From an uncultured archaeon (lineage in GTDB: Archaea; Iainarchaeota; Iainarchaeia; Iainarchaeales; JAAZKV01), in contig CAZKBG010000001.1 of assembly GCA_964551375.1 (NCBI GenBank), positions 715,229-747,228 on the forward strand: a stretch of DNA of 32,000 nt, in the 5' to 3' direction. This document shows, in pieces, positions 9,420 to 9,800 of the stretch. The notes below the pieces were generated by a model. It made no database searches. It was not told the DNA's origin and was given only the letters and a program-made list of their open reading frames with translations. Within the stretch, counting starts at the first letter, position 1, and every line of letters starts with the position of its first letter. Position numbers and translations under genes: made by a program.

Positions 9420-9583
9420 TATCTAATTTTGTCAAAATAACCCCCCATAGTTCCGATAAACCCCCTTTCTCAAAAATACGACTAAAGACGTAATTTTGAG
9501 ATTAAATTTTACACAAACTAATCAGCTGAAAATATCAACCTTTCAAAACCCCTAAAAACACACCCCTCACCACACGATAAATT

Positions 9584-9776
9584 TAGTAATTACGGCGCAC
9601 AAAGTAGAAATAACAGTAATTACGAGGCTCACTTGACTAAAAAAACGCAAATTAGCAGCAAAAATAACAAATCCCAAAGTGCACCGTAATGAACAAAGCC
9701 AAATATAGTAATTACCACTCATTACGAGTAATAACTATAATGAAACCTCATTACCGTAAAGTATTTAAATCATTAC
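9584..9776. repeat. cluster of the 8-bp palindrome GTAATTAC (x3, as [T/C]AGTAATTAC) and CATTAC half-sites (x3 direct, x1 inverted)
   Basis: GTAATTAC at 9586, 9616 and 9708. CATTAC at 9720, 9749 and 9771. GTAATG at 9686. Spacings of 30, 10, 29 and 22 bp are roughly multiples of a helical turn. The last sites flank the TATA-like gtatttaaat (9761-9770). Confidence 0.6.
9761..9770 (+). promoter_or_regulatory. TATA-like box for the 9801 gene
   Basis: gtatttaaat lies about 30 nt upstream of ATG 9801, between two CATTAC sites. Confidence 0.4.
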
Positions 9777-9800
9777 CATCATTATATTAATGATGAGAAA

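Follow-up and report, generated by a model that had tools for sequence, protein, structure and literature searches.

Archaeal repressors that block the recruitment of TBP/TFB or of RNA polymerase use a site arrangement comparable to the one described here. The operators of MDR1, LrpA, Phr and Ss-LrpB abut or overlap the TATA box and the transcription start, and several of them consist of regularly spaced sites that are bound cooperatively. These repressors belong to known families (DtxR, Lrp/AsnC and ArsR) and either respond to ligands or regulate other genes. In contrast, the 144-aa protein considered here has no family assignment, no evident ligand domain and no genomic sites elsewhere. Noc of Bacillus subtilis is a ParB-family CTPase with ~70 chromosome-wide sites, whereas the 144-aa protein is a predicted winged-helix protein with sites at one locus only, and its binding to membranes is putative.

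Some plasmid and chromosome segregation proteins are also close in layout. StbA of plasmid R388 is a small PadR-like HTH protein whose sites lie in sets in its own promoter, phased at 11 bp; it represses its own gene and a few neighbours without a dedicated NTPase partner (bioRxiv 10.1101/2022.04.29.490116). The locus described here shares with StbA/stbS a small HTH-type protein, short sites phased by one turn in the protein's own promoter and the lack of an NTPase partner. The differences are that the StbA sites are 9-bp direct repeats and not palindromes, that StbA belongs to a bacterial plasmid and that no sequence similarity between the proteins was detected. AspA (Sulfolobus pNOB8) and SegB (Saccharolobus) are archaeal dimers which bind palindromes upstream of their own genes, and AspA, a winged-helix protein, spreads over >200 bp from a single 23-bp nucleation site (PMC5120986). 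Palindromes upstream of the protein's own gene are found here as well, and a winged helix is predicted as in AspA. Unlike the 144-aa gene, which has no such neighbour, AspA and SegB are encoded in operons with ParA-type ATPases. Moreover, the single 23-bp site of AspA contrasts with an array at the present locus, and no sequence similarity to AspA was found.

Chromosome organisation and gene control are almost unstudied in DPANN archaea, and a search of the literature on the motif and the phylum found no description of such an array system. A family-less protein with a precisely defined, order-wide putative DNA site is tractable in vitro even though the hosts are uncultivated.

The box array and its setting

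The genome comprises 1.09 Mb in 10 contigs with 37.7% G+C. The window, i.e. the whole stretch of 32,000 nucleotides that was analysed, corresponds to C1:715229-747228 and contains, among others, the genes for aTrm56, TFE-alpha, a KaiC/RadB-like ATPase, XerA and a RelA-like protein. A first-pass annotation of the window had described palindromes and half-sites in the spacer between the initiator tRNA-Met gene (9344–9420, plus strand) and the gene for the 144-aa protein (9801–10235, plus strand). All of its coordinates were correct on re-checking. The palindrome GTAATTAC starts at 9586, 9616 and 9708, each time preceded by TA or CA. CATTAC starts at 9720, 9749 and 9771, and an inverted GTAATG starts at 9686. 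The CATTAC sites at 9749 and 9771 bracket TATTTAAAT (9762–9770), which lies 31 nt 5' of the ATG at 9801.

The extended motif GTAATTACCAC recurs twice, as had been noted: at 10430–10440 within a perfect 14-bp palindrome (10427–10440), and at 7219–7229 within a GCGCG/CGCGC hairpin (7215–7233). The latter copy is 22–32 nt upstream of the 5' end of tRNA-Lys(CUU) (7197). Two C/A-rich tracts had been reported to flank the region, and their composition agrees with this description (A 0.42, C 0.27 and G 0.07 for 9447–9580; C 0.42 and G 0.05 for 10236–10292).

An excess of the motif over expectation holds locally and not for the genome overall. The window contains six copies of GTAATTAC where 0.16 are expected, and none of 100 shuffles reached six. 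The whole genome has 16 copies, and Markov models predict 11–34. As the total is within the genome expectation, the signal is one of local clustering and not of overall enrichment. The Poisson probability of finding at least six copies in 3.6 kb is ~3e-11, or ~9e-9 when corrected for the number of such windows. Of the 16 genomic copies, 11 are inside ORFs of at least 100 aa, and the five intergenic ones all lie within positions 7219–10437 of the window. GTAATTACCAC occurs in three places genome-wide, all at the array locus. CATTAC is not enriched over the window (15 found, 11.2 expected), and four of the 15 copies fall within 91 bp adjoining the promoter. These counts confirm that the repeated GTAATTAC boxes are a genuine array.

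The sites form four clusters spread over 3.6 kb. The spacer itself begins with a distal part (9421–9585), of which the sense (plus) strand is C/A-rich; it carries short conserved blocks (AACCCCCC..GTTCC, TACGAC and CTCACC) and one CGTAAT half-site at 9489. The two distal GTAATTAC sites (9586–9593 and 9616–9623, together 9586–9623) are 30 bp apart and are followed by the conserved block GCTCACTTGA. The middle sites (9686–9735) comprise GTAATG at 9686, GTAATTACCAC at 9708–9718, CATTAC at 9720–9725, which is a decayed GTAATTAC, and GTAATAAC at 9728–9735. The sites next to the promoter are described below.

The remaining clusters lie on both sides of this spacer. A tandem pair that was missing from the first-pass annotation, consisting of GTAATTAT at 6856 and GTAATTAC at 6866 (6856–6873), is located inside an ORF of the PNPOx family (6643–7011, minus strand). 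Its spacing of 10 bp from start to start is the commonest one in the family-wide array, and its GTAATTAC is the only perfect in-ORF copy at the locus. Cluster A (7202–7233) combines CATTAC (7202–7207) with GTAATTACCAC (7219–7229) in the hairpin mentioned above. It sits in the 86-bp spacer between tRNA-Lys(UUU) and tRNA-Lys(CUU), 5–32 nt upstream of the latter. Cluster C (10391–10440) consists of GTAATG (10391) and the perfect 14-bp palindrome GTGGTAATTACCAC (10427–10440), and is flanked by the regulator gene on one side and by the 3' end of a convergent 213-aa gene on the other.

Two boxes with one mismatch were also seen within the regulator coding sequence: GTAATTAG at 9819–9826 (codons 7–9), which overlaps the segment coding for an amphipathic helix, and GAAATTAC at 10194–10201 near the 3' end.

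Conservation of the gene and its sites

The 144-aa gene is a single-copy core gene of one Iainarchaeota order. It was found in 33 of 41 close relatives and, in a sample of the phylum, in 125 of 151 genomes (52 of the 55 high-quality genomes). It is present in every sampled family of its own order except one, and in none of the 11 genomes of other orders.

The sites are conserved together with the gene. GTAATTAC was found upstream of the orthologue in all 29 loci examined, down to a protein identity of 44%. The initiator tRNA-Met, in whose sequence an A1:U72 end pair and three anticodon-stem G:C pairs can be recognised, precedes the spacer in 29/29 loci and thus forms its conserved left border. 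The spacer is 290–590 nt long in these loci; in nearly all of them its sense strand contains about twice as much C as G, and more A than T. The flank consensus across loci is t-R-GTAATTAC-Y-a, and the gene order around the array is conserved in the relatives. Moreover, one to three GTAATTAC sites are located downstream of the gene in 9 of the 29 loci, typically between two convergent 3' ends.

The whole genomes of the 41 relatives were searched for pairs of GTAATTAC copies 2–32 nt apart, with the reversed pattern as a control. Such pairs were found in 23 genomes, and every pair was within ~3 kb of the gene. The reversed control gave 0–1 pairs per genome, and the five genomes of the same class that lack the gene had no GTAATTAC pairs. 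The first-pass annotation had likened the arrangement to an operator or iteron array; an array of this kind, tied to the 144-aa gene, is borne out by the co-conservation of gene and sites across the order and by the sites that bracket the TATA box.

Whole helical turns had been suggested for the spacings. The window's own distances (30, 92, 12, 29 and 22 bp) fit this only loosely, whereas the fit is clear in the relatives, where site-to-site distances peak at 10, 18–22, 30–32, 41–43, 51–53 and 61–63 bp. Three sites (9586, 9616 and 9708) have kept their place in a relative that shares 84% protein identity, while the intervening sequence is unrecognisable. The distal sites 9586 and 9616 were kept while the 22 bp between them diverged fully, which makes them a phylogenetic footprint.

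Further conserved blocks that do not contain GTAATTAC were observed at 9421–9700 of the window. These are AACCCCCC-N3-GTTCC just after the tRNA, TACGAC(A)ATTGAC, CTCACCAAG and GCTCACTTGA. The spacer has two CTCAC blocks, each of which adjoins a distal GTAATTAC site.

A separate observation concerns a segment of 420 nt (9380–9800) that begins in the 3' part of tRNA-Met and extends to the ATG; it is 100% identical to that of a congener (L002, G004:C31). Between these two genomes, the flanking genes are 72–93% identical and other intergenic DNA 35–55%. Against the relative at 84% protein identity, the same segment shows ordinary divergence (57–83%). Selection alone does not account well for the complete identity to the congener, which suggests instead that the segment was recently imported by recombination or that the assembly is chimeric.

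The 144-aa protein and the promoter of its gene

The protein consists of an N-terminal amphipathic helix, a variable linker, a winged-helix core and a K/E-rich C-terminal helix. It matched no family among the Pfam and NCBIfam models. Its 306 homologues are all unnamed, and 37 positions are invariant among 32 diverse sequences. The source names given for these homologues assign the genome to the DPANN phylum Iainarchaeota/Diapherotrites. A fold prediction from the single sequence alone gave a poor model. The AlphaFold model built with 32 homologues reached a pLDDT of 81–95 over residues 31–125, corresponding to the winged-helix core (approximately residues 31–125). It contains predicted helices at 51–58, 67–78 and 89–98 and strands at 101–106 and 109–114, that is, the three-helix bundle followed by a beta-hairpin wing that defines a winged helix. 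The recognition helix and the wing are conserved. A winged-helix fold is therefore confidently predicted from the model, without assignment to a family.

Foldseek gave weak matches (E at least 1e-3) to the winged-helix domains of Fur/PerR, F93, TubR, histone H1 and MecI. Neither the protein on its own nor the family profile gave a meaningful match in sequence searches of solved structures. With 14.2 bits against a cut-off of 27, the protein falls short of PadR membership (Pfam PF03551); sub-threshold matches to this model were obtained for 31 of the 32 family members (best E-value 0.005), in the recognition-helix region only.

Residues 3–14 form the conserved amphipathic helix. The family median of the hydrophobic moment is 0.675, a value reached by <9% of the N-termini of the genome.

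An alignment of 10 genomes showed an almost invariant promoter block of 110 nt. Its 5' part contains tandem GTAATTAC and GTAATG boxes 10 bp apart, a run that is clear in the relatives. It is followed by an everted CATTAC-C-GTAATG, the TATA box, a CATTAC abutting the TATA box and, at the end, a TCATTA/TAATGA palindrome at the expected start of transcription, ~26 nt 3' of the centre of the TATA box. In the window, the everted element is the near-palindrome CATTACCGTAAAG (9749–9761), which lies against the upstream edge of the TATA box; most relatives have CATTAC-C-GTAATG at this place, and the columns of CATTACCGTAAAG are invariant or almost so in 10 loci of the genus. The position of the TATA box TATTTAAAT of the winged-helix gene (9762–9770, plus strand) was inferred; its centre is ~36 nt upstream of the ATG, and its TAAAT core is invariant in all 10 aligned loci. 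Directly after it comes CATTACC (9771–9777), and the palindrome TCATTA-TAT-TAATGA (9779–9793) covers the predicted transcript start; together the two span 9771–9793. The palindrome was kept in 10/10 loci, and its outermost predicted pair (columns 466/482) was changed on both sides in two of the 10. Half-sites thus abut both edges of the TATA box, and a palindrome lies over the predicted start of the protein's own gene.

We consider it likely that the boxes are bound by the adjacent 144-aa protein and that the protein represses its own gene by promoter occlusion. Because half-sites lie on both sides of the invariant TATA box and the predicted start is covered by a palindrome, autorepression by promoter occlusion is the best reading of the promoter. 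The GTAATTAC boxes and the half-sites (GTAAT/ATTAC) would be the specific sites of the winged-helix protein encoded just downstream. A palindrome such as the one of 14 bp at 10427–10440 would suit a dimer reading two adjacent major grooves across the AATT centre. Phasing of ~10.4 bp would place successive dimers on the same face of the DNA and may favour cooperative binding. When the protein is abundant, TBP/TFB or RNA polymerase would be excluded and the gene would be repressed. The other clusters (in the tRNA-Lys spacer, within the PNPOx-family ORF and downstream of the regulator gene) would probably enter the same complex by looping. We infer all three elements of this mechanism: binding by the 144-aa protein, repression as a result of this binding, and looping between the clusters. 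In principle, the boxes could be recognised by another factor. If autorepression is its only role, the protein would represent a new winged-helix family and provide a clean model operator.

The outlying clusters and alternative explanations

The spacer of cluster A is occupied in all seven loci of the genus, usually by two full sites 18–21 bp apart and a degenerate third one. Cluster A is absent from G026, a genome of another family. It probably controls the promoter of tRNA-Lys(CUU), in addition to a role in the complex at the regulator gene. Cluster C lies between convergent 3' ends, where there is no promoter and thus no place for an operator. Together with the in-ORF pair, clusters A and C suggest a larger complex that is confined to the locus.

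The position of cluster A also bears on the proposal of the first-pass annotation that GTAATTAC is an unusual TATA variant which marks several small transcription units; these could include non-coding RNAs of the spacer. One site is at -22 to -29 of tRNA-Lys(CUU), and it is the sole A/T-rich octamer in a G/C-rich context. The distance of cluster A to this tRNA gene varies from 0 to 87 nt among the relatives, which means that the site is not a TATA box as such. Furthermore, the five intergenic copies in the genome are all at one locus, and the TATA box of the regulator gene is a different element, which is invariant. The spacer RNAs fare no better: the search for a structured non-coding RNA in the 380-nt spacer gave no Rfam match at E up to 1, and neither strand showed a conserved RNA structure other than the palindromes. 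The single-sequence folding z-score of the plus strand (-3.1) can be explained by the palindromes pairing together. A general TATA variant is therefore highly improbable. Even less credible is the integrated element that had also been considered, here taken as a small one inserted at tRNA-Met, delimited by a tyrosine recombinase gene and with the boxes as its iterons. The array does start directly behind a tRNA gene, with a tyrosine recombinase gene 2.7 kb downstream, but this recombinase matches archaeal XerA above the curated cut-off and is chromosomal rather than of element type. No att-like repeat of the tRNA-Met 3' end was found nearby, the local G+C content does not differ from the surroundings, and the near-universal single-copy gene in a conserved neighbourhood is the opposite of a patchy distribution. 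A further reading, in which the array is the chromosomal origin or a part of it and the winged-helix protein an origin-binding factor, was weakened by the GC-skew check, which was mixed and negative on balance; we regard it as very unlikely. GC skew was computed for this genome and for two closed relatives (G026 and G039) reassembled from 20-kb pieces. The cumulative minimum of this genome (C1:745.7 kb) is 21 kb from the array (724.8 kb) and farther from orc1/cdc6 (820 kb), and no ORB-like repeats were found beside orc1 in the three genomes examined. In G026, however, the arc of negative skew does not stop at the array (770 kb) but continues up to 798 kb. After detrending, the minimum (820.6 kb) falls at orc1/cdc6 (817.6 kb); the array is ~28 kb from the end of the arc, ~50 kb from the detrended minimum and ~48 kb from orc1/cdc6. 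In G039, the array and orc1 are both on the plateau of the skew maximum. This polarity is opposite to that of G026, so skew polarity is an unsafe guide to origins across the order. The skew-predicted origin of a complete Diapherotrites genome was reported to adjoin cdc6 (PMC5905446), which also argues against an origin at the array. The spacer is C/A-rich and has no pronounced A/T unwinding element. An archaeal oriC coincides with the switch in strand composition and usually adjoins orc1/cdc6, with ORB repeats on both sides of an A/T-rich unwinding element; the position of the array does not fit this description.

The strongest competitor takes the array mainly as a chromosomal landmark, with autoregulation as a by-product. 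By coating the phased sites around its own promoter, the protein would build a large nucleoprotein complex that serves in positioning or segregation and is possibly tethered to the membrane through the N-terminal amphipathic helix. The models are the plasmid centromere-binding systems StbA/stbS, AspA, TubR/tubC and ParR/parC, with a Noc-like tether. If a highly conserved protein has detectable sites only around its own gene, it must have a task beyond self-regulation. Autorepression therefore cannot be the whole function, and this is the main reason for considering a landmark. It is favoured by the confinement of four phased clusters to 3.6 kb at one locus, by the presence of cluster C at convergent 3' ends without a promoter, and by the high conservation of a near-universal, single-copy gene. 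The fold search lists TubR, and the similarity to PadR, though sub-threshold, recalls StbA and AspA, which are PadR-like, bind sites in their own promoters and build complexes for segregation as well; StbA does this with no partner NTPase. The conserved N-terminal amphipathic helix would fit a membrane tether, but the moment of the window's own protein (0.60) is just at the ~91st percentile of N-termini in the genome. While a phased, repeated array at the gene's own promoter is present as in partition systems, the gene has no motor or adaptor gene next to it. Its neighbours are tRNA-Met on one side and the convergent gene on the other, not an NTPase gene (ParA, ParM or TubZ), and the sole ParA/MinD-like gene is found 200 kb off, at C1:526 kb. 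The searches detected no sequence similarity to AspA, StbA, TubR or Noc. The array is 47–174 kb from orc1 (16 genomes), which amounts to ordinary conservation of gene position. In a control, gene distance to orc1 was conserved generally (Spearman rho 0.35 and 0.54), and 66–68% of the genes near orc1 here were also near orc1 in the two closed relatives. As this holds for genes in general, the closeness of array and orc1 is uninformative for a centromere role. On this evidence, we consider the landmark unlikely, though well ahead of an origin. A more specific version, modelled on StbA/stbS or Noc, would have the phased GTAATTAC array and a dedicated winged-helix protein coating it act as an NTPase-independent device for anchoring or segregation, pinned to the membrane by the amphipathic helix, with autorepression only setting the dose; this is doubtful too. 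If true, this would be the phylum's first proposed system of the kind and a chromosomal counterpart of the single-protein plasmid systems. It would also provide Iainarchaeales, organisms without an identified segregation system, with an anchoring or segregation device.

Occlusion of its own promoter by the 144-aa protein remains the preferred explanation of the array. Some minor observations were made alongside. The cumulative GC skew of the closed genome G039 (L080-L142; 1.24 Mb) is strongly asymmetric (net +20,695), and orc1/cdc6 is at the margin of its maximum plateau. At 7042–7054 of the window, ~70 nt downstream of tRNA-Lys(CUU), a 13-nt sequence repeats the 3' end of this tRNA. A second motif, ACTCnnTTTCTTGGACA, followed by a T/A-rich box, occurs at 6418–6440 (minus strand), 10290–10312 (plus) and 11283–11305 (minus), with further copies at C1:60742, C1:738457 and C2:96720. 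It constitutes a 37-nt inverted repeat around the 213-aa gene and follows the regulator gene in all relatives of the genus.
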